From assembly GCA_965652925.1 (NCBI GenBank), contig CBFGXL010000003.1, forward strand, positions 9 through 64,008: a stretch of 64,000 nt of DNA, read 5' to 3'. The notes beneath the pieces were generated by a model. The model was not told the origin of the DNA and did not search any database. It saw nothing but the letters and a program-made list of their open reading frames with translations. The translations under genes were made by a program, and so were the position numbers. This document shows positions 4,324 through 21,261 of this stretch, piece by piece (the first letter of the stretch is position 1; each line of letters begins with the position of its first letter). The stretch comes from an uncultured bacterium. Lineage in GTDB: Bacteria > Patescibacteriota > Minisyncoccia > Phycocordibacterales > UBA918.

Positions 4324-5547
4324 CTATCGATATTGCGCCAATTCTTCCTTAAGACGGGAGATCTCTTTCTTGAGCTCAATCATTTTCAGTTCACGCTCTA
4401 CCATGAGCTTATTCATTCCCGCCTTTTCTTCGAGGCTCTTGCGCAGGCTCTCATTTGATTCTTTCTCTTTTTGATTGAGCTCCTGCTGTTTCTGAAGTTC
4501 TCGTTCTTCCAACTTCTTGTATTTAGCAAGTTCATCAAACAAATGGTTTATCTGTTCTGCAAGCTTTCCCACATCATCTTTTCCTCCCATATGCACTTCA
4601 GCAAAACTGAGGTTGTCCATCGAAATAGCCCGCATCTCTTTACTTAACTGGGCAAAACGTCGCAAGAGGAGTTTTTCAAGCAGAATCAGTATTGTTCCGC
4701 CAAGTAGCAGGATGGAGACTATTGAGATCAATAAAAATGCGCGTATTGTGTCTTCTCCCTGGGCAGTTATTTCGCGGGGGACATCAATTTTTATGATAAG
4801 TGCAGGTTCACCCATTATGTTGTCGAGCTTAAAATATCCTGCAAGCGTGTCCTTCGAAAGTTTTTGTATAACAGAAGGGGTAACGTCGAGCTGTTGTTGT
4901 GCATATCCAACATCTGCGGGGAGTTCCTGATCTGGGGTAAATGTCTCAATAGATAATTGGGTGACATCCTCAAGCCCTTCCATAAGCTCGTCATCGATAA
5001 ATCTGCCAAATATCAGCGTACCAGCTTTTGGGCCTGAGCCGTCGCTGTATGTAATTGGCTGGGAAACAACAAGCATCGTGCCCTCCTGTAAACTGATGAG
5101 TCCTTGCATCCCTTCTTCGTCCGGAGAAAGAAGGGAGGGGTAACTTAAGATCTGTTGCGTGATTGATGAGGATGGAACATTCACTTCTTCTGCAAGATCA
5201 ACCAGAGTTGAGAAGACAACCTCATTGTTATTGTTGATAAAGGCCATCAGATTGATCTGCAAATTTATCAGTGTTTCATCCGAAAGGTTGGATTCAATGT
5301 ATTCAGTATTGCCGTCGCCTATAAATTGATATGTATCATCCCATTGTGCCCAGTCTGCGAGTTTTATCTGCAGTGAAACTAATTTTTCGTCGAACGAACT
5401 GTGTACTCGGGTAAGGTTCTGCTCCATCTGCGCAGTTTCAATTTTCTCAAAGCTTTTAAGAAGCACGACTTGTGAGATGGTATATATCACCCCTGCAAGA
5501 AGGAGGACACTGGTAATAATTACAGCAATGATTTTAAGTCTGATCAT
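4324..5547 (-). CDS. Kinase-less membrane signal transducer: large extracytoplasmic domain, TM, HAMP, coiled coil, conserved C-terminal RELKMIELKK helix
   Basis: N-terminal TM helix, an extracytoplasmic domain of about 250 aa, a second TM helix, a HAMP-like segment (LLRRFAQLSKEMRAISMDNLSFAEV..GKDDVGKLAEQINHLFDELA), then coiled coil ending MVERELKMIELKKEISRLKEELAQYR. No HisKA or HATPase domain. Confidence 0.65.
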   Translation of the reverse strand: MIRLKIIAVIITSVLLLAGVIYTISQVVLLKSFEKIETAQMEQNLTRVHSSFDEKLVSLQIKLADWAQWDDTYQFIGDGNTEYIESNLSDETLINLQINLMAFINNNNEVVFSTLVDLAEEVNVPSSSITQQILSYPSLLSPDEEGMQGLISLQEGTMLVVSQPITYSDGSGPKAGTLIFGRFIDDELMEGLEDVTQLSIETFTPDQELPADVGYAQQQLDVTPSVIQKLSKDTLAGYFKLDNIMGEPALIIKIDVPREITAQGEDTIRAFLLISIVSILLLGGTILILLEKLLLRRFAQLSKEMRAISMDNLSFAEVHMGGKDDVGKLAEQINHLFDELAKYKKLEERELQKQQELNQKEKESNESLRKSLEEKAGMNKLMVERELKMIELKKEISRLKEELAQYR

Positions 5548-6720: not shown

Positions 6721-7671
6721 ATGAGCATACGACAGAAAATATTCCTTTCTTCTGTTGTTGTTGTATTCCTGATGTTTATTGCTCTTGCCAGCTTCTTTTT
6801 TTTCCACCGTGTAGCCATTGTCGAATATAAGACCATATCCGAGAATCTCATTCTTGAAAATGAATTGGCACAAAAAGTAAATGTACTTGTTGAATCATAC
6901 AATGCCATTGTTATTGCCCCATCAAGTCAGGAGAGGAAGGAGACCTATAAGGCCAATTACGAAGATATAGCTCGTATCATACGCACGCTTGATGAGGCAG
7001 TTGAAAGTGAAGACAGTAAAGTTGCGTATGCTGGGCTCAGACGCATTGTGCTCCTTCTTCTTGAGGATTGTCAAAATGGTATAACCGCACTTGAAAGTGG
7101 TGACACGACAGTTGCGCTCGAATATTACAATGATGCGCAGCACAAGCTTGGCTTCGTCCTTTCAAATACCACCTCGTTTTTGCTCACCGAGATACAGCAC
7201 CTGCATGAGGTGCAAGAGAGGATAGAGAAGCGTTACAGCCAACAGCTGTGGGCAACAGCTTTGTGGACACTCCTTTTGGTCTTTGGTGCTGTTTTGTATG
7301 CACTTATCTTTGCTCGCAGGATCACTTCACCGGTTAATATGCTCTCACATATTTCTGCAAAAGTTTCTGAAGGCAACTTCAATCAGCAAATTCCACAAGA
7401 ACTTCTCAGCCGTTCTGATGAGGTCGGAGGTTTTGCACGCTCATTTCACGTTATGCTCGAGAAACTTAACCACAAAATTAACCAGGTAGAGACAGCAAAT
7501 GAGACGATCCTCAAAACTCAAGAGGACCTAACAGTGCGTAATCAAGAACTTGAAAAATTCAATCGTATGGTTGTTGGCCGAGAGTTGAAAATGATCGAGC
7601 TTAAAGAACGTATTGCAACACTTGAAGAGAAGCTCAAAGATTGCGATCAGGCGAAGTTAAAAAGCGAATGA
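6721..7671 (+). CDS. Kinase-less membrane signal transducer: periplasmic domain, TM, HAMP, coiled coil, conserved C-terminal RELKMIELKERI helix
   Basis: TM1 (VVVVFLMFIALASFFFF), periplasmic helical domain of about 150 aa, TM2, HAMP (ARRITSPVNMLSHISAKVSEGNFNQQIP..DEVGGFARSFHVMLEKL), coiled coil ending MVVGRELKMIELKERIATLEEKLKD. No kinase domain. Convergent with the downstream histidine kinase, overlapping it by 38 nt. Confidence 0.65.
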   Translation: MSIRQKIFLSSVVVVFLMFIALASFFFFHRVAIVEYKTISENLILENELAQKVNVLVESYNAIVIAPSSQERKETYKANYEDIARIIRTLDEAVESEDSKVAYAGLRRIVLLLLEDCQNGITALESGDTTVALEYYNDAQHKLGFVLSNTTSFLLTEIQHLHEVQERIEKRYSQQLWATALWTLLLVFGAVLYALIFARRITSPVNMLSHISAKVSEGNFNQQIPQELLSRSDEVGGFARSFHVMLEKLNHKINQVETANETILKTQEDLTVRNQELEKFNRMVVGRELKMIELKERIATLEEKLKDCDQAKLKSE

Positions 7672-9676
7672 CAAAAGTGGTGTCGCCGTGTTCATTCTTG
7701 GCTGCGGTGATAGTTCCATTGTGCAGCTCGACGATTTTTTTGCTGATGGCCAATCCGAGACCTGTGCCCTTAATTGAGCTTGTGGTATGCGTCCGATAGA
7801 AACGCTCAAAAATGTGGGGCAGGTCAGTTGTGTCTATACCGAGTCCGTTATCTGTAATTTGAATTTGTATCGCGTCATCTTTCATGGAGAGAGAAAGAGA
7901 AATAAATGGTTTGCTTTTCTTGGGATCGCTGTATTTGACCGCATTGCTCACCAGATTCGTAAGCAGTTCACGAATCTGTGGTACATCGCATGAAAAGAAA
8001 ATATTCCGCTCGATATTTTTTTCAAATGCTATGCCCTGATGCTGTGCCATCACTTCAAAGTATTCAACAAGTTCTTGCAACAAATCACTGAGATTACATT
8101 TTTTCTTCGCTACTATTTTTTCACCCGCATTTTCAAGCTGTGCAAGATGCAAAAGATCGTATACAAATGCAGATATGTCATCAATAGTACGCTCAAATAA
8201 ATTAAATGTGTCATCTTGGGGCAAATGTTTCCGCAACAATGCAAGCTGTGATTTAACCACGGTTAAGGGGCTTTGCAATTTGTGTGAAATATCGAGTAAG
8301 ATTTGCGCCTGATGATCTTGCATGTCGCGTATTTGCTGCGTACGCTGTGCAACGCGCGCCTCAAGGTCTTTCGAATATGCCTGCACTTCGCTATAGAGTC
8401 TCGCTTTTTGGAATGCTGATGCGATCTGGTGCGAAAAGGTCCTGATAAGGACCAAATCCTCATCAGTGTACGGATCGCCTGACTTTTTCGTACCCATGAA
8501 GATCCCGCCAATGGCATTTCCCTCAAAGATAATAGGGACATTGAGTGTGACCCTCTTTTCGTTTTTTGTGTCGTCATTGAACTGATCTAGTTCATTTTCG
8601 TTTACAAACTCGACTCTCACGAGGGTGGTTTTAAGGATCCTTCCAAGGGTTTCTTCAGTGAGTTGTTGAATGTCTTTAAGAAGAACACTCTTATGTATCT
8701 TCTCGCTCAGCTCGTAGAGAGCATCAGCATAGTTGTACGTATCCTTGAAGAAAAACCTGTCAGTTTTTTTGCGCAGATACCGGTCTATGTGCGGGACGGA
8801 GAAAATACCAAGCACAGTGGTGATACCGGCATTTACCATAATTGCCGTAAGAGTCATCTGTTGCAGGAAAAAGCTTGTCAGTGTGATGATCGATAGATAA
8901 AAACTTACGATAAAGGCAAACAGCAGAGAATAAATAATTCCTCGCTGTACTACAATGCGAATATCGAAGAGTTTGTGTTTCAGGATCGCGTATGCGGTTG
9001 TAATTGCTAAGATCACTGAAAATTGTGGCGCGACGTTAAAGAAACGCAATTCACCCAGAAGCGGAAGGATGATCCCAAACGTAACCCCACCAAAAAATAA
9101 AGCGAGGAACCCAATGGTGATATAGAGAGTTTGCAGCTTTCTCTCCCCGGTTGCCTTTTTAAAGAGACGTAGTAGCCGTGATAGAACATACAGCAGTCCG
9201 CCGAAAAGAAAAACGAGATAGAAATAATATTGAACTCCAGGAATGATCTGCGCTGGTTCGCCTTCGGGGAATGCAGTGCCTAATATCGCATAGTCAGAGA
9301 AAGAAAAAATGGCAAACAAGGCACTTGGGAGGGCATAAAAAACAAGGCGCTGAAAAGATGGCAGACGCCCGTCGACGAATGTGTCAACAAATATGAGAAA
9401 GAAGGTAACTATAAATGCGCTTGCAGTAAATGCAATGCCGCTCCATATAATAAGCGGGGTAGGCGACGTTGAGATATCAGCGGCGGCGTTCCCTCCTATC
9501 CATAAAGCATCAGCAAGAATGTAGAGAATGAAGACATGGGTAAGCGGATCTTTTTTACCCTTTACGAAAAGAAAAACTGCAATACCGACCGAAAGGACCG
9601 TCAGTATTGCAGCTGTGTAGGTAAAGAGAAACATATGTCTATATCGTTGAGAAGTCGGAAGCAAGGAAAGCTCCAT
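7634..9676 (-). CDS. Sensor histidine kinase (N-terminal multi-TM sensor domain, GAF-like region, HisKA, HATPase_c)
   Basis: At least 8 predicted TM helices at the N-terminus. H-box ISHKLQSPLT; N box NLVSNAVKYS; G1 DNGLGI; G2 GTGLGLAISKKIV. Confidence 0.85.
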   Translation of the reverse strand: MELSLLPTSQRYRHMFLFTYTAAILTVLSVGIAVFLFVKGKKDPLTHVFILYILADALWIGGNAAADISTSPTPLIIWSGIAFTASAFIVTFFLIFVDTFVDGRLPSFQRLVFYALPSALFAIFSFSDYAILGTAFPEGEPAQIIPGVQYYFYLVFLFGGLLYVLSRLLRLFKKATGERKLQTLYITIGFLALFFGGVTFGIILPLLGELRFFNVAPQFSVILAITTAYAILKHKLFDIRIVVQRGIIYSLLFAFIVSFYLSIITLTSFFLQQMTLTAIMVNAGITTVLGIFSVPHIDRYLRKKTDRFFFKDTYNYADALYELSEKIHKSVLLKDIQQLTEETLGRILKTTLVRVEFVNENELDQFNDDTKNEKRVTLNVPIIFEGNAIGGIFMGTKKSGDPYTDEDLVLIRTFSHQIASAFQKARLYSEVQAYSKDLEARVAQRTQQIRDMQDHQAQILLDISHKLQSPLTVVKSQLALLRKHLPQDDTFNLFERTIDDISAFVYDLLHLAQLENAGEKIVAKKKCNLSDLLQELVEYFEVMAQHQGIAFEKNIERNIFFSCDVPQIRELLTNLVSNAVKYSDPKKSKPFISLSLSMKDDAIQIQITDNGLGIDTTDLPHIFERFYRTHTTSSIKGTGLGLAISKKIVELHNGTITAAKNEHGDTTFVIRFLTSPDRNL

Positions 9677-10364
9677 ACCCTCGGCTTTTCGGATCCTTCA
9701 TCAAGTTGGGGATGACGCATATAAGCCCCGCCCGCAAAGACTCCGTGCTGAACCTCAAAAGAGAGTCCGGCCGGCGGAGCTTCGGCAGATCAAGCACCGG
9801 TTGTGGGGCAGATGCTTCCCATGTTGTTGTCTGGTGGAGGAGTTTCATGCTCTCATGGGCATACCAGAGTGCAATATCCTCTTCTTTGTAGGGAAGTGTG
9901 CCGCCATTCTCTCTCTCAACCGTGCGTAGATAACGGTCGAGATTGACCAACCGCGGAGCTCCGATGAAGTATACCATTTCTCGTTTTTGGAGCAGTATCC
10001 GCAATTCTTTGTTGAGTGCAGCTCCTGCTTCCGATGAACGTTGGACCACATTCACGGCATAGACGGTTTTTGCTGATGGATCATGAGTATGGATACTCCA
10101 CCCATGTCCTGTCTGTGCTTCAGGCGCGGTGTGTTTACTGATCTCATCGAAGGAGAAATGCACTTGAATTGCATAATAGAAGCCGTCGAGGCGCCCTCCT
10201 TTCTCGGCTACGAGGAAAAAGGGAGAATGAACGTCGTACCACTCTTTGAGAGTGGCGTAAGTGAGGATCTCGGTGCCTTCACGTTCCCATCGGGCCTGTT
10301 CGATCTCAACGAGAGTTGGCAAATCTTCTTCTCTGACATTTCGGACTGTGTAGCAGTCGAACAT
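9639..10364 (-). CDS. Hypothetical protein, weak GNAT-acyltransferase-like N-terminal half
   Basis: N-terminus VRNVREEDLPTLVEIE and FFLVAEKGGRLDGFYYAIQV resemble the GNAT beta-strand core, and RSSEAGAAL is a possible motif A. The C-terminal 100 aa are unassigned. Sits in an operon between the decarboxylase and the kinase. Confidence 0.3.
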   Translation of the reverse strand: MFDCYTVRNVREEDLPTLVEIEQARWEREGTEILTYATLKEWYDVHSPFFLVAEKGGRLDGFYYAIQVHFSFDEISKHTAPEAQTGHGWSIHTHDPSAKTVYAVNVVQRSSEAGAALNKELRILLQKREMVYFIGAPRLVNLDRYLRTVERENGGTLPYKEEDIALWYAHESMKLLHQTTTWEASAPQPVLDLPKLRRPDSLLRFSTESLRAGLICVIPNLMKDPKSRGYGAFLASDFSTI

Positions 10365-10404
10365 TGTTTCTTTCTCCTATGTAAGGAACTCGTCTCTGCA
10401 TGCC

Positions 10405-10827
10405 CTAGACGTATGTCCGGGCATTCTTTTGTAGAGATGAGAGTGAGGTGTTGTGAAATCGCTTTCCTCTGATAAGTAGATTCGTTTCAAAAGCTTGGAT
10501 ATTGAATACTTCACTTATGAGTTTTGTGGTTTTTTGAGCGTCGAAGGTTTTGCAGGAATACACATCCGCAGTGACAAACCCCCGTTCTTCATAGGTGTGG
10601 ATACTGATGTGTGATTCCATGATAAAGACGAATCCTGAAAGGCCGCGTATTCCTGGCTCATCAACTTTAATGATGTGAGGGAAACCAACTCTGCGCATAC
10701 CAATGTGCGCCGGGAGTTCCATGAGCAATTTGTACAGATTATCGACGCTCCCGCAGAGTTTTGCATTCGCTGCGTATCCGTCGAGTGTCAGCTGCAGCCC
10801 GTAGGCTGTATTTTTCTCTTTTTCCAT
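10405..10827 (-). CDS. Pyruvoyl-dependent S-adenosylmethionine-decarboxylase-fold proenzyme (SpeH/SpeD class 1-like) with deviant motif
   Basis: Small (about 140 aa) AdoMetDC-like protein with self-cleavage and pyruvoyl-forming motif FIMESHISIHTYEE; the canonical form is ..ESH(L/I)..HTWPE. Start set at the internal ATG (MEKEKN), 1 nt after the stop of the upstream methyltransferase. Confidence 0.7.
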   Translation of the reverse strand: MEKEKNTAYGLQLTLDGYAANAKLCGSVDNLYKLLMELPAHIGMRRVGFPHIIKVDEPGIRGLSGFVFIMESHISIHTYEERGFVTADVYSCKTFDAQKTTKLISEVFNIQAFETNLLIRGKRFHNTSLSSLQKNARTYV

Positions 10828-10828
10828 A

Positions 10829-11572
10829 TTACTTCGTGATGATAGGAGCAACGATCGTGTTGCTCTTCCAATACTGGCAATTCTCAGGGGGAACCACCGG
10901 ACAGATACTGAGGTCGATATGTCTAAACCCAGCCTGCTTCAATTTGTGCATATGTGCATCAGAAAAAGAATCTATCTCATCTGAGTAGTAGGTGAGCACC
11001 CCGCCATCTTTGAGCATGCGGAAGGCTTCTTCAAAGAATGTAAAGTGGTTTTGGTGGATCTCATCCTCGCTTAAGGGGTAGGTGTCAAATAATATCCCTG
11101 AGATGCTTCCGTCAGGGATAACTTTGGCAATGTCCTGCCAGAATCCGTATAGGGGAATAATCGGGTGAGCACTTTCCTGTGCAAAAGTCACGAGAGTATC
11201 GAATACATCATTATTGGCCTCGATAATGTAGTGTGAATCAATAGCGTGCGATTGAATATATTGCGCTGAGATACCCATGCCAAAGCCTACTTCAAGCACT
11301 GTTCCTCCTTGTGAAGCGGCGATTCTCGCGAGCTCTTGCATGTATGGGTCTTCCCAGCGTTCCATAACTGGATGTCCCTGTATCACCAATTCATCTTGCG
11401 TAAGCGTTGCTTTTTCCTGCTTCCACATGTGGTAATCCGATAAGAAACCGATATCACGTCGTGACTGATACGTAACCTCACGTATGTCATCAAATTTTTT
11501 GTTTTGGATCATCTTAAAAAAGTTATTGATTAACTTTTTTAGTCTACAAAACAGAGGATAAACTTCCCTCAA
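10829..11572 (-). CDS. GAMT/Rmt2-family (guanidinoacetate N-methyltransferase-like) SAM-dependent methyltransferase
   Basis: Core closely matches the remembered GAMT sequence: HPVMERWEDPYM, VLEVGFGMGI, IIEANNDVF, IIPLYGFWQD, LPDGSISGILFDTYPLSED, GGVLTYYSD. The true start may be the internal M (MIQNKK). Confidence 0.75.
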   Translation of the reverse strand: MREVYPLFCRLKKLINNFFKMIQNKKFDDIREVTYQSRRDIGFLSDYHMWKQEKATLTQDELVIQGHPVMERWEDPYMQELARIAASQGGTVLEVGFGMGISAQYIQSHAIDSHYIIEANNDVFDTLVTFAQESAHPIIPLYGFWQDIAKVIPDGSISGILFDTYPLSEDEIHQNHFTFFEEAFRMLKDGGVLTYYSDEIDSFSDAHMHKLKQAGFRHIDLSICPVVPPENCQYWKSNTIVAPIITK

Positions 11573-11622
11573 AGAAAAATTAAATTTTATTTCACAAAAA
11601 AATAAACTGTACAGCGTGCAGC

Positions 11623-12294
11623 TTATGAGTGGTCAAATCTATACCCAATCCCCGGTACTGTCTGTATAAGGCGTGCATGGCGTTCTGAATCAAGCTTTCG
11701 GCGGAGTGTCATGATATGCGTTTCTATTGTGTTTGAAAAAGGATCGGCGTTCATGTCCCATACATGCTCCAGTATCATGCCGCGTGAAAGAACCGTGCCG
11801 CGATTTCTCATGAGATACTCAAGGAGTAGGAATTCTTTGCGTGTGAGATATACCTCTTGTCCATTTTTCTTCACAATATGTCGTTTGCAGTCGAGTTCAA
11901 GATCTCCAATTTCAAGAATGTCTGACTGGAGTTCTTTCGGGCGGCGCAAGAGTGCTCGAATGCGCGCAAGAAGCTCTTCAAATGAAAACGGTTTTGTGAG
12001 GTAATCGTCAGCACCGGCATTGAGGAATCCTATCTTATTTACGGTTTCTGATTTAACAGAAAGTCCAATTATCGGCGTTTTAATGTTGCGTGTTCTGAGT
12101 TCTTTGCATATATCAAGTCCTGTATTGCGAGGCAACATGAAGTCTAGAATGATCACGTCGTAATCATTGGTCGTACCCAAATATACTCCTTCTTCACCAT
12201 CAAATGTTGTGTCGACAACAAAATATTCTGATTCCAAACTGATCTTCAGAAATTCATTAATTTTTGGGTCGTCTTCAACTACAAGGATGCGCAT
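11623..12294 (-). CDS. OmpR/PhoB-family response regulator (REC plus winged-helix DNA-binding domain)
   Basis: REC domain MRILVVEDDP..D..ILDFMLP..GL..K..PIIGLS; Trans_reg_C region LTRKEFLLLEYLMRN.G.VLSR..I...VW with ending GIGYRF. First gene of the minus-strand operon. Confidence 0.9.
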   Translation of the reverse strand: MRILVVEDDPKINEFLKISLESEYFVVDTTFDGEEGVYLGTTNDYDVIILDFMLPRNTGLDICKELRTRNIKTPIIGLSVKSETVNKIGFLNAGADDYLTKPFSFEELLARIRALLRRPKELQSDILEIGDLELDCKRHIVKKNGQEVYLTRKEFLLLEYLMRNRGTVLSRGMILEHVWDMNADPFSNTIETHIMTLRRKLDSERHARLIQTVPGIGYRFDHS

Positions 12295-12482: not shown

Positions 12483-13658
12483 ATGATCTCTGCAATCAGT
12501 AATTTATATATTGTTATGCATATTGAGCAGAAACTTTGGACACAGCGCGATGGATGGCAAAGCAAAAGTGAGCCTCTCCAGCACACCCCACAGCTCGTGT
12601 TTGTATTTGGCGGCAGAGCAGAGGTCCAAAAGCAGGAGTATTTTGCTGAGATAAAAAAAATGTATCCCGACTCGAACATTCTCACCTGTTCTACTTCGGG
12701 TGAAATTCTGGGAACACGTGTCTATGACCACTCTTTGTGCGTTACTGCAATTCACTTTGAAAAAACAAAAGTGTCGTTTGCTCAGACAACTATTGCAAGT
12801 ACTGATGAAAGTGAAGCGAAGGGGAAGATACTTGCTGAATCTCTACCGCATGACGATCTCGCTCATGTGCTGGTCTTTTCTGATGGGCTTATAGTAAATG
12901 GCACTGCGTTAGTTGATGGTCTGACAGCTGCACTGCCAAGCACTATTTCTGTTACTGGCGGGTTGGTGGGGGATGGAGCTGATTTTAAACATACTGTTGC
13001 GGGGCTCAATGAAGCTCCCAAGGAAAATAACATTATTCTCATTGGATTGTATGGAACCGACATTAACGTTGGGTACGGATCGCTCGGAGGATGGGATACC
13101 TTCGGTCCCGATCGAACTATTACTCGTTCAAAAGGAAATGTGCTCTATGAGCTCGATGAACAACCTGCGCTTGAGCTTTACAAGGAATATTTAGGTGAAC
13201 TTGCTTCAGAGCTTCCTGGGTCAGGACTCTTGTTCCCGATGCGATTGCAGTACATTTCTAAAAATGGAGAAGTCGAGGTGGTTCGTACGCTTTTGGGTAT
13301 AAATGAAGAAGATCAAAGCATGACTTTTGCCGGTGATATGCCGGAGGGGGTTACAGCTACCCTTATGCGGGCAAACTTCGAACGATTAGTTGATGGAGCA
13401 CAAGGGGCAGCGAAGATGAGTATTGAAAACAGTGGAAAAGAGGTTGAATTCGCTTTACTTATCAGTTGTGTGGGAAGGAAGCTGGTTCTTAAAGAACGAA
13501 TTGAAGAGGAGACTGAAGCAGTCCAGTCGGTTGTCGGGGAAAAAACAGTGATGGCAGGATTCTATTCGTATGGAGAGATCTGCCCTATTGCACCAACAGA
13601 AAAACAATGCCGTTTGCACAATCAGACCATGACCATAACAACGTTGAGCGAAAAGTAA
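12483..13658 (+). CDS. FIST-domain sensor protein (FIST_N plus FIST_C)
   Basis: Pattern LVFVFGG...ILTCSTSGEI and GGLVGDG..F.HT..G matches the FIST N/C architecture of cytoplasmic small-ligand sensors. First gene of the plus-strand signalling operon. Confidence 0.65.
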   Translation: MISAISNLYIVMHIEQKLWTQRDGWQSKSEPLQHTPQLVFVFGGRAEVQKQEYFAEIKKMYPDSNILTCSTSGEILGTRVYDHSLCVTAIHFEKTKVSFAQTTIASTDESEAKGKILAESLPHDDLAHVLVFSDGLIVNGTALVDGLTAALPSTISVTGGLVGDGADFKHTVAGLNEAPKENNIILIGLYGTDINVGYGSLGGWDTFGPDRTITRSKGNVLYELDEQPALELYKEYLGELASELPGSGLLFPMRLQYISKNGEVEVVRTLLGINEEDQSMTFAGDMPEGVTATLMRANFERLVDGAQGAAKMSIENSGKEVEFALLISCVGRKLVLKERIEEETEAVQSVVGEKTVMAGFYSYGEICPIAPTEKQCRLHNQTMTITTLSEK

Positions 13659-13659
13659 C

Positions 13660-14322
13660 ATGCATAGGACCCTGGTTCGACAACTCGATAAGTATGCTGA
13701 CCTCACTCCAGAGAGTGTTGTGTCTCCATGGAAAGAGTTGCTGTCTGCGGTCAGTACTACCTATGATGATTTTGACCGGGATAAACAGCTTATTGAGCGT
13801 TCGCTTGAAATAAGCTCACACGAACTGCGTCGCCTCATTTCCACACTGCAGGCGACACTTGATGCCACCAATGAAGGTATTCTTGTTATGGATGACAAAG
13901 GAAGGATGGCTAATCACAATAAAAGATTTACAGAGATTTGGAGCATCCCTGATGACATCATGAACACCCATGATGCAACAAAGGCACTTGAGTATGCTAT
14001 GCAGCTTGTACTCAATCCGGTGCCGTTCCGCGAGAGTGTGGAAGAAGCACTGAATAAAAACGATAAAGAGACTGTGTATGTTGTACACTTTAAGGATGGG
14101 AGAGTAATAGAACTTCGATCCAAGCCACACTTTCTTGACGGGGAGAGTGCGGGTACGATCTGGAGTTCTCGTGACATCACCCAGAGTGTTAAGGCTGAAG
14201 AAGATCTGAAAGCAAAGCTCGCAGCTCTTGAATTACTTAACAAGTCGATGGTTGATCGAGAGTTAAAGATGATTGAGCTCAAGAAGAAGATCGCAGAATT
14301 GTCGAAGGACAATACCTTATGA
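13660..14322 (+). CDS. Kinase-less cytoplasmic PAS-domain transducer with conserved C-terminal RELKMIELKKKI helix
   Basis: PAS-like core (LDATNEGILVMDDKGRMANHNKRFTEIWSIP...) then coiled coil ending MVDRELKMIELKKKIAELSKDNTL. The stop overlaps the start of the downstream kinase by 4 nt (ATGA). Confidence 0.65.
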   Translation: MHRTLVRQLDKYADLTPESVVSPWKELLSAVSTTYDDFDRDKQLIERSLEISSHELRRLISTLQATLDATNEGILVMDDKGRMANHNKRFTEIWSIPDDIMNTHDATKALEYAMQLVLNPVPFRESVEEALNKNDKETVYVVHFKDGRVIELRSKPHFLDGESAGTIWSSRDITQSVKAEEDLKAKLAALELLNKSMVDRELKMIELKKKIAELSKDNTL

Positions 14323-16469
14323 AAAAAAGCGAACGTTTTACATACGGAATACAACTGAAGTTTATCCTCTTCAGGTTGTTTAATACTCTCATTATCATCC
14401 TGCTTGGAGCATTCTGTATCTACATGATCACAGATGCAGGGAAGAGTTCTTCGAGTGTTGTGGAGAACAGATTGCCAAAGCTCGATGCCGTCCAAGAAAT
14501 ATACTCAGCTGTTTTCTCTTCAGGTCTATATGGTGCTGCTGTACTTAATGATCAGGACAGACTCGGTGGAGAAGATCAGTACACGCGTGAGCTTGAGGAA
14601 AGTTTCAAGAGGGCACATCTATATTTAGACGCGCTCATCTATGGCACAGAGACCGAAACATTTGAAAAATTGCACGGACGGGATATGAATGATCTGGGTA
14701 TTGAATCACTCAGTATAGTAAATCCTTCAGAAGAGCTGGTTGAATCTGTGACAGAAGTGAAGATGGAAGTCGAAAAATTCGAAGAGTCACTGCGCACTGC
14801 AATAACTGCTCGTGAGGCTTCTACGGCGGATGCGTCAGAGGCAACTACGAGTGCTCTGCTGCAGCAGGATACCTACGAATTGCAACGTGTTGCCTTTACC
14901 TCACATACCGACAGCATCGCTCAGGCTCTCGATGAAGTGCAGACCTTGCTTGATACGCAGATTAATACAGGGATCGAACAAGTAAATGAAAACAATAAAA
15001 CCAGGGTAGTTCTTGTTTTTCTTGTCGTGCTATTGGCAGCAACTGTAGCGCTCTTTGGAGGGCTTTTATTCTCTAACCATGTAATACTCGGACCGTTACG
15101 CTCACTCACACAAACAGCAGAGGAGATGGCTGAAGGGAAACTTTCACGCCGAGTGAAAATCACATCCAAGGATGAAATTGGAAAACTTGGTTATACATTC
15201 AATAAACTCGCAAGCAGACTTCAGTCATCGTATGACGATCTGGAGAAGATAGTTAAAGATAAGACCGATGCTCTCTCTTCGGTACTTCAGCAGTTTGAAT
15301 CGAAAAATGACGACCTTGAAAAGTCGCAGATGGCAACCATCAACCTTTTGGAAGATCTTGAGGAGGAGAAACGTGCTGTTGAGCAAAGAGTCAAGGACAG
15401 AACTGAAGAGCTTGAGCGTGAAAAAAATAAACTTCTCCAAGTGACGAGCAACATGAAAGGAGGAGGTATCCTTCTTGATAAGGAAGGCAATGTTGTATTC
15501 ACTAATGAAGCAACATTTAAAATGCTCGACATAAAAGAGGGAGTAAGTTCCAAAGAGATTCTTGAGCATTTTCTTTCTTACTTTGATGAGTCTTCTATCC
15601 GACAGTACTTCAAGCGATGCATCGCGGGGGAAACTTTTCATGTGGAAGAGATCAGCGGCCATGGCAGGGTGTACGAGATGTTCTTCCATTATTTGAAGAA
15701 TGATGAAGTGAAAGGATCAGAAGGCTACTTTATCTTGTTCTTCGATATAACTGACGCGAAGCTCCTCGAACGCTCAAAAAGCGAACTGGTTGCTGTTGCA
15801 TCACATCAGTTACGTACACCACTTACCGCTATGCGCGGAAACGTAGAAATGCTTATTGACGAAAGTTTTGGAAAGCTTAACAAAGAACAGCATGAGCTTC
15901 TTGATGATGTTGAGGTTTCGACCATACGTCTCATTACTATGGTCAATGAGATGCTTGATATAACAAAGATAGAAAAAGGTGATCTGGAGATGCAGATTGA
16001 GGAACTTAACCTCAAAGAGATTGTCGACTCTGTCATTGATGACCTTAGTTCTTATGCGAAACGGCACGAGTTCGACATTGACCGGAGCGATCTTTCTGCC
16101 AACGTCATGATTGCAGGAGACAAAGTGCGAGTACGGCAGATCTTCCAGAACCTTATTGATAACGCCATCAAATACAGCAATCATCCCGGTCTGCTCCGCA
16201 TATCAACCAATGTACAATCTGATATGGTTGAGATCGTTTTCAAAGACAATGGCATTGGTGTTCCTAAAAATGAACAGCCGAAGCTCTTTGAACGATTTTA
16301 TCGGGCTTCAAACACGGCAAAGACTGCAAGTAGCGGTTCAGGTTTAGGACTCTATATTGTAAAATCAATTGCACGACAGCTTGGTGGAGACATCCGTTTC
16401 GAATCTGAAGAGGGAATAGGGACAACCTTCTTTGTTACCTTGCCATTGTTTGCTAAACATAAAGCATAG
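14319..16469 (+). CDS. Sensor histidine kinase (TM, periplasmic domain, TM, HAMP, coiled coil, PAS, HisKA, HATPase_c)
   Basis: HAMP PLRSLTQTAEEMAEGKLSRRVKITSKDEIGKLGYTFNKLA; H-box VASHQLRTPLTAMRG; N box NLIDNAIKYS; G boxes DNGIGV and GSGLGLYIVKSI. Confidence 0.9.
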   Translation: MKKSERFTYGIQLKFILFRLFNTLIIILLGAFCIYMITDAGKSSSSVVENRLPKLDAVQEIYSAVFSSGLYGAAVLNDQDRLGGEDQYTRELEESFKRAHLYLDALIYGTETETFEKLHGRDMNDLGIESLSIVNPSEELVESVTEVKMEVEKFEESLRTAITAREASTADASEATTSALLQQDTYELQRVAFTSHTDSIAQALDEVQTLLDTQINTGIEQVNENNKTRVVLVFLVVLLAATVALFGGLLFSNHVILGPLRSLTQTAEEMAEGKLSRRVKITSKDEIGKLGYTFNKLASRLQSSYDDLEKIVKDKTDALSSVLQQFESKNDDLEKSQMATINLLEDLEEEKRAVEQRVKDRTEELEREKNKLLQVTSNMKGGGILLDKEGNVVFTNEATFKMLDIKEGVSSKEILEHFLSYFDESSIRQYFKRCIAGETFHVEEISGHGRVYEMFFHYLKNDEVKGSEGYFILFFDITDAKLLERSKSELVAVASHQLRTPLTAMRGNVEMLIDESFGKLNKEQHELLDDVEVSTIRLITMVNEMLDITKIEKGDLEMQIEELNLKEIVDSVIDDLSSYAKRHEFDIDRSDLSANVMIAGDKVRVRQIFQNLIDNAIKYSNHPGLLRISTNVQSDMVEIVFKDNGIGVPKNEQPKLFERFYRASNTAKTASSGSGLGLYIVKSIARQLGGDIRFESEEGIGTTFFVTLPLFAKHKA

Positions 16470-16473
16470 TTGT

Positions 16474-16899
16474 ATGGAAAAAATCACAGAATCAAAGCCA
16501 TTGAAAGACAGGAAGATACTCATCGTTGAGGATGATCATTTTATTTCACGAATCTATGAAAAATGGCTCACTGCTGCTGGAGCTCATATTCTGATTGCGC
16601 ACGATGGTGTGCAAGGGCTGCGTACGCTTGACGAAGAAGAGGTCGATCTTGTGCTTCTTGATCTCGGTATGCCTGGACTTGATGGCTACCAGACGCTGCT
16701 GCAACTGCGCGAGCGTCCGAAGTTGAAGGAATTGCCAGTTATTATTCTCAGTAATACGACCATGAATGAGAATCGTGATGGCTTTGCAGATATAAAAAGG
16801 GCAGGGGTTAAGGATGTGCTCCGCAAATATGAGATATCGCTTACCGAGATAGTGAACTGTATCAGCGCATATTTCCCTAAAGAGTTAAAAACCCAATAA
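16474..16899 (+). CDS. Single-domain response regulator receiver (CheY-like)
   Basis: KILIVEDD..D, LVLLDLGMPGLDG and a conserved Lys region. No output domain. Start set at ATG (MEKITESK) just after the kinase stop. Confidence 0.85.
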   Translation: MEKITESKPLKDRKILIVEDDHFISRIYEKWLTAAGAHILIAHDGVQGLRTLDEEEVDLVLLDLGMPGLDGYQTLLQLRERPKLKELPVIILSNTTMNENRDGFADIKRAGVKDVLRKYEISLTEIVNCISAYFPKELKTQ

Positions 16900-16908
16900 A
16901 TTTATTCT

Positions 16909-17301
16909 ATGAGTACACCACACAAAATATTATTGGGGGAAGATGAAGAGTTTGTTGCTCGTTCTTACATCCGGAAACTCCAGGTAGAGGGCTATGAAGT
17001 TGTGCACGCGCACAATGGAGAAGAGGCCCTTAAACTTATGGAGGTTGAGAAACCGGACCTAGTTATACTTGATCTCATGATGCCGGTGAAAACTGGGTTT
17101 GAGGTTCTGCAAGAAATAAAATCAGGAACAAATGAAGCGCTGAAAAAGCTGCCGATTATTGTAGCATCTAATCTTGGTCAGAAAACAGATATTGATACCG
17201 CACGTTCGCTCGGTGCAATTGATTTCCTCATTAAATCAAACATATCGCTGAAGGAGCTTGTGGCAAAAGTGCAGGAGCATCTACCTGCGCAAAAAAAGTA
17301 G
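16909..17301 (+). CDS. Single-domain response regulator receiver (CheY-like), second copy
   Basis: KILLGEDEEF, LVILDLMMPVKTG, PIIVASNLG. No output domain. Immediately upstream of pilB. Confidence 0.85.
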   Translation: MSTPHKILLGEDEEFVARSYIRKLQVEGYEVVHAHNGEEALKLMEVEKPDLVILDLMMPVKTGFEVLQEIKSGTNEALKKLPIIVASNLGQKTDIDTARSLGAIDFLIKSNISLKELVAKVQEHLPAQKK

Positions 17302-17306
17302 TCGTC

Positions 17307-18986
17307 ATGGAAATTTCCACTGATAATTTAGAAGAAATGCTTGTCCCGCCGGGACATATTACTGAAGAGCAGCTTCTTGCTGCAGTGACCGCTTCGGAGT
17401 ACAAACGTATTCCCTTAAAGGAAGAGCTCATTGAAGAAGGTCTGGTCACGGATGTTAATCTTGGGAGAACCATTGCTGATTTCTTCGACTGTCGGTTCAT
17501 CGACCTTGCTGAACTTTTGCTGAAAGATGAATATCTGCCGTATATTCCTGAAATAGTTGCTCGTGCGCAAAGAGCTGTCGTGTTCGGTGTGACTGATACA
17601 TCTGTTCAAGTTGCTACAGAGAATATCGACAACTATGAGTTCTTCAGACTTTTGGAGAAGAAGACAGGAAAAGAGGTGGATGTGTATTACGCAACCACTC
17701 GTGGGTTAGATCGCGCCCTTAAGCATTATAAAGGTGATCTCAATGGAAAGATCATTTCTCTTATACAGACCAGTTTACAAGACCAGCAGGATGGAGATAT
17801 TGTGCGGCTCGTGGATCTTTTCCTTGAATACGCAAGCGACAATCGCGCCTCAGACATTCATATTGAGCCGCTTGAAGAGGAGATACTCATACGGTTCCGT
17901 GTTGACGGCATATTGCACGAGGCTGTGCGGTATCCTAAAGTGCTGCATGAAAAGGTCATCTTCCGCATCAAGATTATGGCACATATGCAGACAGACGAGC
18001 ATGCTGCAGCACAAGACGGACGTTTTGAATACAAAGGTGCTGACAGTATATTTGATGTTCGTGTTTCTATATTGCCTATAACAGACGGTGAAAATGTGGT
18101 TATGCGTCTTTTGGACTCGCGTACACATCGTTACTCGCTTGAGAATCTTGGTCTTGGTGAAAGTGACTATAACAAGATCATCAATGCTATTGAAAAGCCT
18201 CATGGCATGATCATGGCGGTAGGACCAACCGGCTCCGGCAAGACCACTGTGCTGTACACCATACTGGAGAAACTCAACAGCAGTGAGGTCAATATCATGA
18301 CCATTGAAGACCCGGTTGAGTACGATATCGAAGGCGTGCAACAAACACAGGTCAACCCTAAAAAGAATCTCACGTTTGCAACCGGTTTGCGATCGATCGT
18401 CCGGCAAGACCCGGACATCATCATGGTGGGAGAGATCCGTGATGAGGAAACAGCTGACATTTCAATCAACTCGGCGCTTACCGGACATTTGGTCATTTCA
18501 ACATTGCACACGAATGATGCTGCAACTACCTTTCCGCGACTTATGGAAATGAATGTGGAGCCATTCCTCATTGCGTCATCAGTTAATGTCATTATTGCGC
18601 TCCGACTGGTGCGAAAGATATGCACTCACTGTAAGGAGAGTTACTTGCCGACTAAAACAGAGCTGCAGCTTTTGCAGCTTGATGACCATATTGTGGAGTT
18701 CATCACTCGTATTGGCGGTAGCAAGGATCTGACCAAACTACGATTGTACCGGGGTGTCGGCTGCAAGATGTGCCGCAATTCAGGCTTCAGCGAGCGGGGA
18801 GGTATTTTCGAGGTACTCGAAGTTGATGAGGACATACGCCTCCTTATAACGCAAAAGGCATCGGCAGAAATGATCAATCAAAAGGCAATAGAAAAAGGAA
18901 TGACCACGCTGTTGTACGACGGCATTGTTAAAGCCCTTAATGGTACAACAACGCTTGAAGAGGTAATGAAGGTGGCACGCACATAA
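17307..18986 (+). CDS. pilB: Type IV pilus assembly / type II secretion ATPase PilB/GspE
   Basis: T2SSE_N-like N-domain; Walker A GPTGSGKTT; Asp and His boxes; tetracysteine motif CTHC...CKMCRNSGF. Confidence 0.9.
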   Translation: MEISTDNLEEMLVPPGHITEEQLLAAVTASEYKRIPLKEELIEEGLVTDVNLGRTIADFFDCRFIDLAELLLKDEYLPYIPEIVARAQRAVVFGVTDTSVQVATENIDNYEFFRLLEKKTGKEVDVYYATTRGLDRALKHYKGDLNGKIISLIQTSLQDQQDGDIVRLVDLFLEYASDNRASDIHIEPLEEEILIRFRVDGILHEAVRYPKVLHEKVIFRIKIMAHMQTDEHAAAQDGRFEYKGADSIFDVRVSILPITDGENVVMRLLDSRTHRYSLENLGLGESDYNKIINAIEKPHGMIMAVGPTGSGKTTVLYTILEKLNSSEVNIMTIEDPVEYDIEGVQQTQVNPKKNLTFATGLRSIVRQDPDIIMVGEIRDEETADISINSALTGHLVISTLHTNDAATTFPRLMEMNVEPFLIASSVNVIIALRLVRKICTHCKESYLPTKTELQLLQLDDHIVEFITRIGGSKDLTKLRLYRGVGCKMCRNSGFSERGGIFEVLEVDEDIRLLITQKASAEMINQKAIEKGMTTLLYDGIVKALNGTTTLEEVMKVART

Positions 18987-18989
18987 CAT

Positions 18990-20039
18990 ATGCTCGGTTC
19001 AATTTCTATTCAGCATCGCGTCGATTTTGCCAAAAACTTGGCAATTATGCTTCGTAGCGGTATAGCCATCAATGATGCGCTTACTTCATTGGGAGAGCAG
19101 AGTGAATCTTCGCGCCTGCGCAGGATTATTTTTAAGGTTCGTGACGATATCGAAAATGGGACATCGCTGTCTGCCGCCTTCGCGAAGGAGGTGCATGTTT
19201 TTGGGCAGATATTTGTCAGTATGATCAAAGCCGGAGAGCAGAGCGGTACGCTGCAAGGGAATCTGCAATTCCTCTCAGACTGGCTTTCACGGAGTGCAGA
19301 TCTCAAACGTGAGGTTTCAGCAGCGACACTGTATCCAAAAATGGTCTTTGGCGCGTCGGTTGTCCTTGGTGGGGGGCTTGCGGTATTCATACTTCCCATG
19401 CTTGTGCCACTGTTTACCGGTCTTGATGTGGAGCTTCCACTGCTTACACGAGTATTGCTTGCCTTGTCTTTGTTTGTGCAGGAATACTGGTTCTGGTGCA
19501 TTGTCGGCACAATTGCCGCGATCGCTGCGCTCATTTACAGCAATACCTTTGCGCCGGTGAAATTCCTCTTTCATCTTTTATATATTCGTATGCCGTTCCT
19601 TGGGAAACTCATGCGCCAGTATCAGCTCGCACTTATCACACAGTTGTTTGCAACACTGCTCAAAAGTGGCTTATCGCTCAATGAGTCTGTTGAGATCGTC
19701 TCTCAAGCAGCAACGAATGTGCATTATCAAAATGCGCTCCGTGAGGTCAAGTCTGCAACTGAAAAAGGGACGACGTTGTCAGAGACCATGCGTGACTTCC
19801 CACAGATGTTTCCGGTGATCGCTGTTAATATCATTGCCATTGGCGAAAAAAGTGGAACGCTATCGAATTCACTCGATTATCTTTCGGATTTTTATACCAA
19901 AGAGGTGAATGTGCAGGCACGCAAACTGCCGACCATCATTGAGCCGCTGTTGCTTATTTTTATTGCGGTTATCGTCGGTTTTGTTGCGCTTGCGATCATC
20001 ATGCCAATCTATGAGCTTACCGGAAATATCTCACGTTAA
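18990..20039 (+). CDS. pilC: Type IV pilus inner-membrane platform protein PilC/GspF
   Basis: Two T2SSF-like repeats with conserved segments (AIMLRSGIAINDAL, ATLLKSGLSLNESV) and three TM regions. Confidence 0.85.
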   Translation: MLGSISIQHRVDFAKNLAIMLRSGIAINDALTSLGEQSESSRLRRIIFKVRDDIENGTSLSAAFAKEVHVFGQIFVSMIKAGEQSGTLQGNLQFLSDWLSRSADLKREVSAATLYPKMVFGASVVLGGGLAVFILPMLVPLFTGLDVELPLLTRVLLALSLFVQEYWFWCIVGTIAAIAALIYSNTFAPVKFLFHLLYIRMPFLGKLMRQYQLALITQLFATLLKSGLSLNESVEIVSQAATNVHYQNALREVKSATEKGTTLSETMRDFPQMFPVIAVNIIAIGEKSGTLSNSLDYLSDFYTKEVNVQARKLPTIIEPLLLIFIAVIVGFVALAIIMPIYELTGNISR

Positions 20040-20460
20040 AGGATTCACACTCGCCGAACTTCTTGTGGTTGTTGCGCTTATGCTTGTTGTGGGCATGTTC
20101 ATGTTTCCGCTTGGAATACAGTTCTACCGTTCACAGATGCTCAATGAAAGTTCTGAGGGTATTTCTTCGGCATTGCGTCGCGCTCAGCATCTATCTCGAA
20201 CAGGTGCATATGACAGTACCTTCGGCGTGCGTGTGATTGATGGCGGCTACGTGCTCTTTTCTGGCGAGACCTATGATTCAAGAGATGTCACCCAAGATGA
20301 ATCACATTCGCTCCCCGCAACTATAAGCATCACTGGGTTGCAGGAGGTGTCATTTGAACTGTTTACCGGCAATCCCTCAGCAACCGGCACCCTTACTGTG
20401 CAGACAGATACCGCTGAAGCCTCAGTGACTGTTCAGGATTCAGGCTTTATTGTGCAATAA
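20011..20460 (+). CDS. Prepilin-type N-terminal cleavage/methylation domain protein (pseudopilin/minor pilin)
   Basis: Class III signal peptide ..HVKGFTLAELLVVVALMLVV with Glu at +5. Start set at the ATG overlapping the pilC 3' end by 29 nt; the upstream part of the six-frame ORF looks non-coding. Confidence 0.6.
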   Translation: MSLPEISHVKGFTLAELLVVVALMLVVGMFMFPLGIQFYRSQMLNESSEGISSALRRAQHLSRTGAYDSTFGVRVIDGGYVLFSGETYDSRDVTQDESHSLPATISITGLQEVSFELFTGNPSATGTLTVQTDTAEASVTVQDSGFIVQ

Positions 20461-20466
20461 ATAGTT

Positions 20467-21261
20467 ATGCTTTATGAACGCCACAACCGCGGACAGTCAC
20501 TTATAGAAATGCTTTTTGCCGTTGCAGTCTTCACCATTGGGGTGGTGACCATTGGGTATCTCGTCTTTGATTCTTTTACTTCATTACGCTTCGGGAAAGA
20601 AACGATGCAGGCACGCCTTCTGGCGAGTGAGGGTCTTGAAGCGGTGCGCACGATCTATGAAGATGATTTTGCGCTGCTTGAGAGTGGGACGTATGGACTT
20701 GCACTCCAAAATGGTGTTTGGGAATTTTCGTCCTCAACAGAGGAGATCGGTATTTTTACACGCACAATTGTTATCACAGAAAGAGATCAAGAAATGAGAG
20801 ATGTTACAGCAACGGTTGCATGGGGAGAGGCCCCACGAGAAAAAAGTTTTGCACTGTCAACTATATTTACCAACTGGGAACAAGAAAGCGAAGACGCGGC
20901 CTTTCTTGAAGTTGATATAAACAATGCTTCTCTTATTTCCTCAAGCACTGTGCTTACAGGGGTAGCTTTGCGCAATACAGGAGCAGAAGATGTCATTGTT
21001 ACACAAATGAAAGCACAATGGGGAAATGAGGAGACTTTTTCAGACATAGTCATCAGAGGAACAACCGTCATGTCTGCCTCAACCTCTCCTGCAGCGGTTT
21101 CAGATGAGACCGTAAATATCACTGACTATGTGGTAGGTTCGGGCACAGGGTATCATTTGATCGACAGCATGGTCTTCAGTGGCGACATGTCGGAGACTAA
21201 TCTTCTTCTGACATTTATACTCGCTGACGGCAGTAAAAAACACGCATTTGTCGTATGGTAA
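20467..21261 (+). CDS. Prepilin-type N-terminal domain protein (minor pilin, large C-terminal domain)
   Basis: N-terminus RGQSLIEMLFAVAVFTIGVV, a GxxxE-type prepilin leader with a hydrophobic helix. Confidence 0.6.
   Translation: MLYERHNRGQSLIEMLFAVAVFTIGVVTIGYLVFDSFTSLRFGKETMQARLLASEGLEAVRTIYEDDFALLESGTYGLALQNGVWEFSSSTEEIGIFTRTIVITERDQEMRDVTATVAWGEAPREKSFALSTIFTNWEQESEDAAFLEVDINNASLISSSTVLTGVALRNTGAEDVIVTQMKAQWGNEETFSDIVIRGTTVMSASTSPAAVSDETVNITDYVVGSGTGYHLIDSMVFSGDMSETNLLLTFILADGSKKHAFVVW

Follow-up and report, generated by a model that had tools for sequence, protein, structure and literature searches.

Which molecule would be made by three enzymes whose genes lie between the response regulator and the sensor kinase of a two-component system? 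This question is raised by a 64,000-nucleotide stretch of DNA from an uncultured member of the Patescibacteriota (GenBank assembly GCA_965652925.1, contig CBFGXL010000003.1, positions 9 to 64,008), which as a whole is called the window below. On its minus strand, at 7634–12294, an open reading frame (ORF) check revealed five head-to-tail ORFs. They encode an OmpR-family response regulator, a methyltransferase of the guanidinoacetate N-methyltransferase (GAMT) family, a proenzyme with the fold of the S-adenosylmethionine (SAM) decarboxylase AdoMetDC, a 241-amino-acid protein with a predicted GNAT fold, and a sensor histidine kinase. This gene order had been claimed in an earlier note on the sequence, and all five genes were found at the expected places. 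The genomes of the candidate phyla radiation (CPR) are tiny and biosynthesis is scarce in them, and three enzymes for one molecule together with a sensor of their own are likely to matter toward hosts or neighbours. The preferred reading, to which a probability of roughly 45% is given, is that the AdoMetDC-fold enzyme would convert arginine to agmatine, the GAMT-like enzyme would methylate the guanidino group, the GNAT-fold protein would perform a further step, and the flanking two-component system would exert control. Family membership, conservation of the module, gene fusions and substitutions among the neighbours are established; the substrates, the product and the signal are inferred.

Conservation of the five-gene unit

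The comparison of a methyltransferase profile with one genome per species led to 186 matches and to 80 retrieved loci. These species representatives do not include the genome of the window, and the best methyltransferase match among them reached 61%. The order and orientation of regulator, methyltransferase, decarboxylase, third protein and kinase, designated type A, was present in 17 of the 80 loci (L010–L016, L018, L019, L021, L023, L025, L026, L029, L030, L033, L038). In all 17 the methyltransferase gene is followed by a decarboxylase gene on the same strand and then by a kinase gene of the seven-transmembrane (7TM) type. An OmpR-type regulator is encoded upstream of the methyltransferase in 14 of them, and a homolog of the 241-amino-acid protein lies between decarboxylase and kinase, likewise in 14. 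The regulators are 49–65% and the kinases 31–45% identical to those of the window. The hosts belong almost exclusively to the CPR/Patescibacteria and are labelled Parcubacteria, Paceibacterota, Yanofsky-, Falkow-, Doudna- or Uhrbacteria, or simply as metagenome-assembled genomes (MAGs). The same five genes were also met in the same order on independent metagenome contigs that are unrelated to the window.

The methyltransferase and decarboxylase genes are separated by a few nucleotides or overlap. In the window the junction reads TAA-t-ATG, and the distance of one nucleotide between stop and start that had been claimed for it was verified. Fusions with an N-terminal methyltransferase and a C-terminal decarboxylase were also found (P0043, P0062, P0063, P0075, P0079, P0226, and in loci L018 and L030). 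A neighbourhood search for the pair of GAMT-like and AdoMetDC-like genes had been proposed as a check, and it revealed both the co-occurrence in 17 of 80 species-level loci and the fusions. The arrangement is more than chance, and the genes are a real conserved functional unit.

The enzymes also occur on their own. In L091 the methyltransferase–decarboxylase pair is present without a two-component system, and a Thermoanaerobaculia genome contains methyltransferase, decarboxylase and third protein without a kinase. Because the enzyme trio exists without a two-component system, the enzymes are a separable metabolic unit, and the two-component link is a trait of CPR genomes. L091 and L027, in both of which the pair lacks a two-component system, lie outside the CPR. 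TrwB-like and serine-recombinase genes are found near the pair of L091, a hint that it may have been transferred horizontally with a mobile element.

In the window the unit starts with the regulator gene (11623–12294, minus strand), whose product contains the Pfam domains Response_reg and Trans_reg_C (each E about 3e-27). It is separated from the methyltransferase gene by an AT-rich spacer of 110 nucleotides (11513–11622), in which one weak promoter-like match was found at 11613–11584. A promoter scan of the cassette region yielded 7 sites compared with 9.9 expected from shuffled sequences, and the match in the spacer has no statistical weight. Promoter and terminator predictions were dropped altogether, because the numbers of sites were below or similar to those in shuffled sequence.

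The GAMT-like methyltransferase

The second gene (10829–11512, minus strand) encodes a predicted SAM-dependent guanidino N-methyltransferase of 227 amino acids. The longest ORF begins with TTG at 11572, and ATG at 11512 was selected as the start by gene callers on identical contigs. PF27704 (GuanidinoAc_N-MeTrfase) is the precomputed Pfam family on an identical public protein; the Pfam scan of the window proteins gave no family for the methyltransferase, and NCBIfam gave only an insignificant match. Comparison with solved structures yielded human GAMT (3orh, E=3e-51) and rat GAMT (1xcj, E=1e-49), and an alignment with human GAMT shows 47% identity in 202 columns (E=3e-63). The motifs HPVMERWE.PYM, VLEVGFGM, DTYPLSE and GGVLTY, which the earlier note had named as GAMT motifs, do occur in both the window protein and human GAMT. 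ERWE, DTYPL and VLEVGFGMG align with E45, D134 and SAM motif I of the rat enzyme, and the equivalents of E45 and D134 (E54 and D143) were invariant in 20 diverse homologs and in all architecture types. In GAMT, D134 is the catalytic base that deprotonates the guanidino nitrogen. These alignments place the methyltransferase in the GAMT family, with the acidic residues for binding and deprotonation of the guanidino group both retained.

An exhaustive homolog search also revealed GAMT-like domains at the extreme C-terminus of proteins of 1000–3500 amino acids (P0332 with 3030 and P0370 with 3546 amino acids, P0336, P0363, P0275 and others), as well as GAMT-like proteins of 330–600 amino acids with N-terminal extensions.

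One difference from the animal enzymes was found. Thirteen residues of animal GAMT, CNLTSWGELMKSK, are absent from the window protein and from every prokaryotic homolog that was compared. The backbone amides of L170 and T171 are said to bind the carboxylate of guanidinoacetate; by alignment numbering the two residues fall inside CNLTSWGELMKSK, which we take to contribute this contact. The deletion weakens the argument that an identity of 47% should mean the same substrate as that of animal GAMT. As a mark of a switch from guanidinoacetate to agmatine it was rejected, because it is also present in homologs beside amidinotransferases; being common to all prokaryotic members, it does not single out agmatine. 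A search for specificity-determining positions gave no signal either, the methyltransferase consensus being nearly identical in all architecture types.

The partners of the methyltransferase differ between lineages. In five other genomes (L036, L048, L068, L079, L085; methyltransferase at about 7001–7650) an amidinotransferase is encoded nearby, which matches StrB1 at E=5e-95 and human AGAT at 1e-62. From their gene content these loci look like a prokaryotic AGAT plus GAMT, creatine-like pathway. The hosts are Desulfamplus, a Bacillota MAG, Desulfobacterales, Thioploca and Oscillatoria, and a short-chain dehydrogenase is also encoded in two of the loci. Across lineages the partners make guanidino compounds or could make agmatine, which fits a guanidino N-methyltransferase.

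The same loci bear on the possibility that the window enzyme is a genuine GAMT, which would form creatine from imported or host guanidinoacetate, with the decarboxylase and the GNAT-fold protein serving a separate polyamine function. The identity to human GAMT is at a level at which function is often conserved, and the AGAT-like amidinotransferases beside some prokaryotic homologs suggest that a bacterial creatine-like route exists. Nevertheless, this possibility is regarded as very unlikely: an amidinotransferase was not found in the flanks of the window or in any type A locus, CNLTSWGELMKSK is missing from all prokaryotic homologs, and the fusion with the decarboxylase argues for one shared pathway.

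The AdoMetDC-fold decarboxylase and its replacements

The third gene (10405–10827, minus strand) encodes an AdoMetDC-fold pyruvoyl proenzyme of 140 amino acids. It matched the Pfam family AdoMet_dc (PF02675) above the gathering threshold, with 69.5 bits versus a cut-off of 25 (E=3.7e-19). The catalytic residues Ser, His (+5) and Cys are kept, as ME-S-HISI-H-TY...YS-C-K aligns with S63, H68 and C83 of the T. maritima enzyme. By this alignment the decarboxylase is probably an active pyruvoyl enzyme, with a predicted self-cleavage at Glu-Ser in MESHISIHTY. In five type A decarboxylases (L016, L021, L025, L033, L038) Glu-Ser is replaced by Thr-Ser (VTSHISIHTY), with His and Cys kept.

The earlier note had suggested that the AdoMetDC fold might have been converted to a new function here, and several independent lines suggest that this is so, most plausibly toward arginine. 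With the equivalog model TIGR03330 (SAM_DCase_Bsu) the protein scored 62.1 bits, which is under the cut-off of 75.65. All true AdoMetDCs have a proline after His-Thr-(Trp/Phe), and many of the arginine decarboxylases derived from them, the SpeDA enzymes, have lost it (Li et al. 2023, PMC10407285). The window decarboxylase reads HTYEE at this place versus HTWPE in T. maritima, and the proline is missing from most type A relatives as well. Relatives at 52–56% identity always adjoin the methyltransferase, with or without a two-component system. The nearest relative outside this methyltransferase-linked clade, P0205, is 40% identical, and its neighbours are saccharopine-dehydrogenase-like, Orn_DAP_Arg_deC and arginase-family genes. 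This context corresponds to a carboxyspermidine pathway with an agmatinase, and therefore an arginine decarboxylase is needed there and decarboxylated SAM is of no use. Relatives from phages, with identities of no more than 36%, were uninformative. In L093 (3952–6356) an AdoMetDC-fold homolog with 36% identity lies between an LPG_synthase_C gene, named after the C-terminal domain of aminoacyl-phosphatidylglycerol synthase, and an EamA transporter gene, a further uncommon setting for the fold.

Another line of evidence came from clusters in which the decarboxylase is exchanged. Type C loci contain the methyltransferase together with a GAF kinase, a small protein, a multi-transmembrane protein and a decarboxylase whose gene is convergent. 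In these loci the decarboxylase slot is occupied by a pyruvoyl AdoMetDC-fold enzyme in L022 and L028, and by a pyridoxal phosphate (PLP) dependent decarboxylase of the alanine-racemase (AR) fold in L041, L062, L069, L070 and L084. This is an apparent non-orthologous displacement. The list of loci with a decarboxylase of the pyruvoyl or the PLP type beside the methyltransferase also includes L050, L054, L055, L059 and L067. The closest solved relatives of the PLP enzyme are lysine/ornithine, ornithine and viral arginine decarboxylases, with a match to the lysine/ornithine decarboxylase 5gjm at E=8e-49. We know of no AR-fold enzyme that acts on SAM.

If SAM were nevertheless the true substrate of the decarboxylase, which would then be a SpeH/SpeD enzyme, its GAMT-like partner would use or consume decarboxylated SAM, perhaps as an unconventional transferase of aminopropyl or methyl groups in place of SpeE. 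AdoMetDC classically adjoins SpeE, a partner of the class I methyltransferase fold, and both the Pfam score and the intact catalytic Ser, His and Cys are compatible with this explanation. The earlier note had seen no SpeE gene in the window, and indeed none was found among 20 mid-sized ORFs that were scanned or in the annotated flanks, which also agrees with a replacement. Agmatinase and agmatine deiminase were likewise not found among these 20 ORFs or in the annotated flanks. However, the SAM-binding motifs of the methyltransferase are identical with or without a neighbouring decarboxylase, the glycine-rich motif being unchanged and an aminopropyltransferase-type Asp lacking, which argues against decarboxylated SAM as donor. 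SAM itself was judged an unlikely substrate of the decarboxylase because of the equivalog score below the cut-off, the loss of the otherwise invariant proline, the PLP enzyme in the sister slot and the context of P0205. Altogether, this explanation is considered improbable, and on the sequence evidence the enzyme probably decarboxylates an amino acid (arginine) and not SAM.

The amino acid could also be ornithine or lysine, in which case the methyltransferase would N-methylate a diamine (putrescine or cadaverine) that has no guanidino group. AdoMetDC-derived ornithine decarboxylases are common in the CPR and include a Kaiserbacteria enzyme (PMC10407285), the PLP enzymes of the sister clusters are closest to 5gjm and to ornithine decarboxylases, and the Thr-Ser cleavage site of the five type A decarboxylases is as in SpeDC. 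The core around the SpeDC cleavage site is Q-LIETS-xxSGHF-...Y-D-FSC (Li et al. 2023, PMC10407285), from which Gln, Thr before Ser, Phe after His, and Tyr were taken as diagnostic. This signature is not present in the window decarboxylase, which reads FIMESHISIHTY...ADVYSC. The full set of residues was found in none of 23 methyltransferase-neighbouring decarboxylases, and the same 0 of 23 holds for Gln, Phe after His, and Tyr, the residues other than Thr-Ser. In addition, the guanidino-binding Glu/Asp pair of the methyltransferase is invariant, and elsewhere its partners include amidinotransferases. For these reasons ornithine or lysine as substrate is seen as unlikely.

The signalling link, the proposed pathway and known systems

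The fourth gene (9639–10364, minus strand) encodes the 241-amino-acid protein. Scans with NCBIfam and Pfam gave no match for it, and the GNAT label that it had received in the earlier note stands as a predicted fold, of the CurA/GphF/SxtA-like subfamily. The acylation that had been proposed along with the label is doubtful. In the predicted fold the closest structural neighbours are the GNAT-type decarboxylases CurA, GphF and SxtA, which the protein resembles more than it does N-acyltransferases; the CurA subfamily decarboxylates malonyl-type thioesters, reportedly without acyl transfer. The glycine-rich beta4-alpha3 segment, which in GNATs is the binding place for the CoA pyrophosphate, is conserved in the family. 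The catalytic residues of CurA are His389 and Thr355 in a V-shaped cleft. An invariant His was not seen in the beta5 region 128–150, where the secondary-structure register would place His389, and a conserved Ser/Thr is present at position 101. A family profile gave only marginal N-terminal matches to ordinary GNATs among the PDB sequences, and a profile comparison with the alternative third-slot proteins F78 and the GNAT/FeeM family F25 detected no relationship. The chemistry of the third protein would be acyl transfer or decarboxylation, and from the modelled fold acylation is uncertain.

The last gene encodes a sensor histidine kinase of 666 amino acids with an N-terminal 7TM region followed by GAF, HisKA and HATPase_c domains (7634–9634, minus strand). 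The Pfam matches were HisKA_7TM (E=3.6e-13), HATPase_c (8.6e-28), HisKA (3e-6) and GAF_2 (4.8e-6, just below gathering). Gene callers place its start at ATG 9634, four nucleotides past the stop of the 241-amino-acid gene. An overlap of 38 nucleotides between these two genes, which had been claimed earlier, holds for the longest ORF, which starts at 9676, and disappears with the called start. A receiver and winged-helix regulator together with a HisKA/HATPase kinase in one unit make this an OmpR/PhoB-type system. Neither the regulator nor the kinase reached any NCBIfam equivalog cut-off, and therefore it does not count as orthologous to a named system.

The link to membrane kinases extends beyond type A. 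Among the genes next to the methyltransferase, that of a multi-transmembrane histidine kinase is conserved most widely, its family F1 being present in 36 of the 80 loci, and in these bacteria the methyltransferase is tied to such kinases more consistently than to the decarboxylase. L037 contains only regulator, methyltransferase and kinase. Type B clusters comprise a small Cys-rich protein, a multi-transmembrane protein, a PurD-like ATP-grasp protein of 434 amino acids, the methyltransferase, a GAF-less multi-transmembrane kinase and a regulator of about 270–300 amino acids (the ATP-grasp cluster was found in L040, L043–L045, L049, L051, L052, L056–L058, L060, L065, L066 and L074, with an additional AdoMetDC-fold gene in L057 and L058). 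Type D clusters contain a 7TM-GAF kinase, a GNAT/FeeM-type acyltransferase (a homolog of N-acyl amino acid synthase), a small membrane protein, a PLP decarboxylase and the methyltransferase. Some clusters have EamA transporters added. A methyltransferase of the NNMT/PNMT/TEMT family (E=3e-21) is encoded beside the fusion protein in L004 / L018 9155–9985, and also in L028 and L041; by its family it suggests a second N-methylation of the amine. The NNMT/PNMT-type enzyme, the EamA transporters and the GNAT/FeeM acyltransferase point to a small-molecule character of the clusters. From their gene content the recurring theme appears to be a methylated small amine, sometimes joined by an amide and perhaps exported, always near a membrane kinase.

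Rmt2 belongs to the same family as GAMT, and the methyltransferase could instead be an Rmt2-type protein-arginine methyltransferase that modifies the kinase, the regulator or another signalling component, with the decarboxylase as a frequent passenger. The F1 kinase as the commonest CPR neighbour, even in L037 and type B where a decarboxylase is lacking, speaks for this explanation. It is weakened by the methyltransferase–decarboxylase fusions in several lineages, by partners such as amidinotransferases, amino-acid decarboxylases, the NNMT/PNMT-type methyltransferase and EamA transporters, and by the methyltransferase–decarboxylase–third protein trio without two-component system in Thermoanaerobaculia and L091. 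Modification of a protein is accordingly held to be highly improbable.

For the preferred arginine-to-agmatine pathway the following course is proposed. The AdoMetDC-fold protein would cleave itself at Glu-Ser and thereby form the pyruvoyl cofactor. The resulting enzyme would decarboxylate a basic amino acid; this is most likely L-arginine, from which agmatine would arise. The GAMT-family enzyme would then methylate a guanidino nitrogen with SAM, presumably the internal, substituted one, as GAMT and Rmt2 do. Methylation might also precede decarboxylation, and the product would be the same either way. In a further step the GNAT-fold protein may either acylate the free amine at its nitrogen or act as a decarboxylase. 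Together, the 7TM-GAF kinase and the OmpR-type regulator would switch the pathway on upon a membrane or external cue, or would sense the product.

Several points weigh against this proposal. The proline criterion is useful and not decisive, as P0205 and the type B and C decarboxylases retain the proline, and SpeDA is hard to separate from true AdoMetDC by sequence (Li et al. 2023, PMC10407285). The substituting PLP decarboxylases are nearest to lysine/ornithine and not to arginine enzymes, and as judged from this similarity the amine could be putrescine or cadaverine. The active-site consensus of the methyltransferase is nearly identical across architectures, its sequence is not specific for agmatine, and at 47% identity to the human enzyme it might act on guanidinoacetate itself. 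The link between methyltransferase and kinase without any decarboxylase in L037 and type B leaves room for a merely accessory role of the decarboxylase. GNAT decarboxylases, which the third protein resembles, reportedly do not transfer acyl groups. Finally, a Mantel comparison of methyltransferase and decarboxylase distances in nine complete loci gave r=0.12, which was not significant; for decarboxylase and kinase r was 0.42 (28 of 2000 permutations), a value from the same nine loci, a sample too small to use.

An extension of the arginine-to-agmatine proposal is self-contained signalling: a diffusible methylated amine of the agmatine type, possibly acylated, would be sensed by the module's own 7TM-GAF kinase, the regulator would autoinduce the operon, and the amine would represent a new class of autoinducer in episymbiotic bacteria. 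The sister clusters would then be chemical dialects, namely those with PLP decarboxylase, FeeM-type acyltransferase, ATP-grasp ligase or EamA exporter. This is speculative, and it is put forward with a small degree of belief. Independent of signalling, the arginine-to-agmatine model predicts a methylated guanidino amine, for instance N-methylagmatine, as a metabolite that is not known from the primary metabolism of bacteria. Units of N-methylagmatine are contained in the antibiotic saskemycin, where they are made via an unrelated SznE-type arginine methyltransferase. If the model is true, it would provide the first functional context for a large prokaryotic GAMT branch that is about 50% identical to the human creatine enzyme, and it would extend the repeated conversion of AdoMetDC to amino-acid decarboxylases, with a new use of the product downstream.

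Divergent from the cassette, at 12483–21261 on the plus strand, a run of signalling and pilus genes was found. It encodes a FIST protein, a PAS protein, a HAMP histidine kinase and two single-domain response regulators, and also a T2SSE ATPase, a T2SSF platform protein and a pilin with an N-terminal methylation motif. Among the scanned ORFs and annotated flanks of the window, genes of type IV pili or the type II secretion system are present and metabolic genes are few, and this gene content, together with the relatives of the window, is the basis for placing it in the Patescibacteria; a tRNA-Ser(GGA) is encoded at 59526–59613 (minus strand). Three sensor-domain proteins (CHASE4, HAMP, PAS) that have neither kinase nor output domain flank the cassette on both sides, at 4324–5547 (minus strand), 6721–7671 (plus strand) and 13660–14322 (plus strand). 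They share a tail of about 25 residues, N-x-MV-x-RELKMIELK-x-x-I-x-x-L, which is located 12–21 residues ahead of the stop and might serve to bind one shared partner, by docking or as a coiled coil.

Comparison with known systems revealed likenesses and differences for each component. Animal GAMT (EC 2.1.1.2), the partner of AGAT in creatine synthesis, belongs to the same PF27704 family, and the window enzyme shares with it VLEVGFGM and the ERWE/DTYPL pair, the identity of 47% extending over the complete catalytic domain. Unlike animal GAMT, the window enzyme lacks CNLTSWGELMKSK, has a decarboxylase, which is sometimes fused, and not an amidinotransferase as partner, and is encoded inside a two-component operon. 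The 241-amino-acid protein differs from the GNAT_L domain of CurA, from GphF and SxtA, which belong to loading modules of polyketide synthases (PKS), and from malonyl-CoA decarboxylase in being free-standing, without an acyl carrier protein or PKS context, and the identity is 15–18%.

The decarboxylase shares with SpeDA and SpeDC the class 1b AdoMetDC fold, the Ser/His/Cys triad, the lack of a SpeE partner among the scanned window ORFs and flanks, and the frequency in the CPR (PMC10407285). The loss of the proline is as in many SpeDA, and the gene cluster of the outgroup P0205 is like those that predict SpeDA (PMC10407285), an enzyme that has no positive sequence signature and is recognised by its context with agmatine-using enzymes. 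SpeDA and SpeDC genes lie in polyamine clusters (SpeY, HSS, SpeB, CASDH/CASDC, SpeE), whereas the clade of the window adjoins or is fused to a GAMT-like methyltransferase. The earlier note knew of no pathway that pairs the two families, and full-text searches, which included Li et al. 2023 (PMC10407285) and a 2026 paper of the same laboratory, did not reveal one either.

In the speD-speE operon an AdoMetDC-fold gene is likewise translationally coupled to a gene of the class I methyltransferase fold. In contrast to SpeE, the partner in the window is a true methyltransferase by its unmodified SAM motif, and the decarboxylase fails the SpeD equivalog test. Enzyme genes in two-component operons are known from CqsA/CqsS and LqsA/LqsS, in which a signal synthase is combined with a sensor, and from pmrCAB and vanRS-vanHAX, which act in envelope modification. 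Like these systems the unit of the window joins biosynthetic genes with a membrane kinase and an OmpR-type regulator, while the enzyme families differ. Taken together, known enzyme families seem to be assembled here into an undescribed, widely conserved, kinase-linked pathway.

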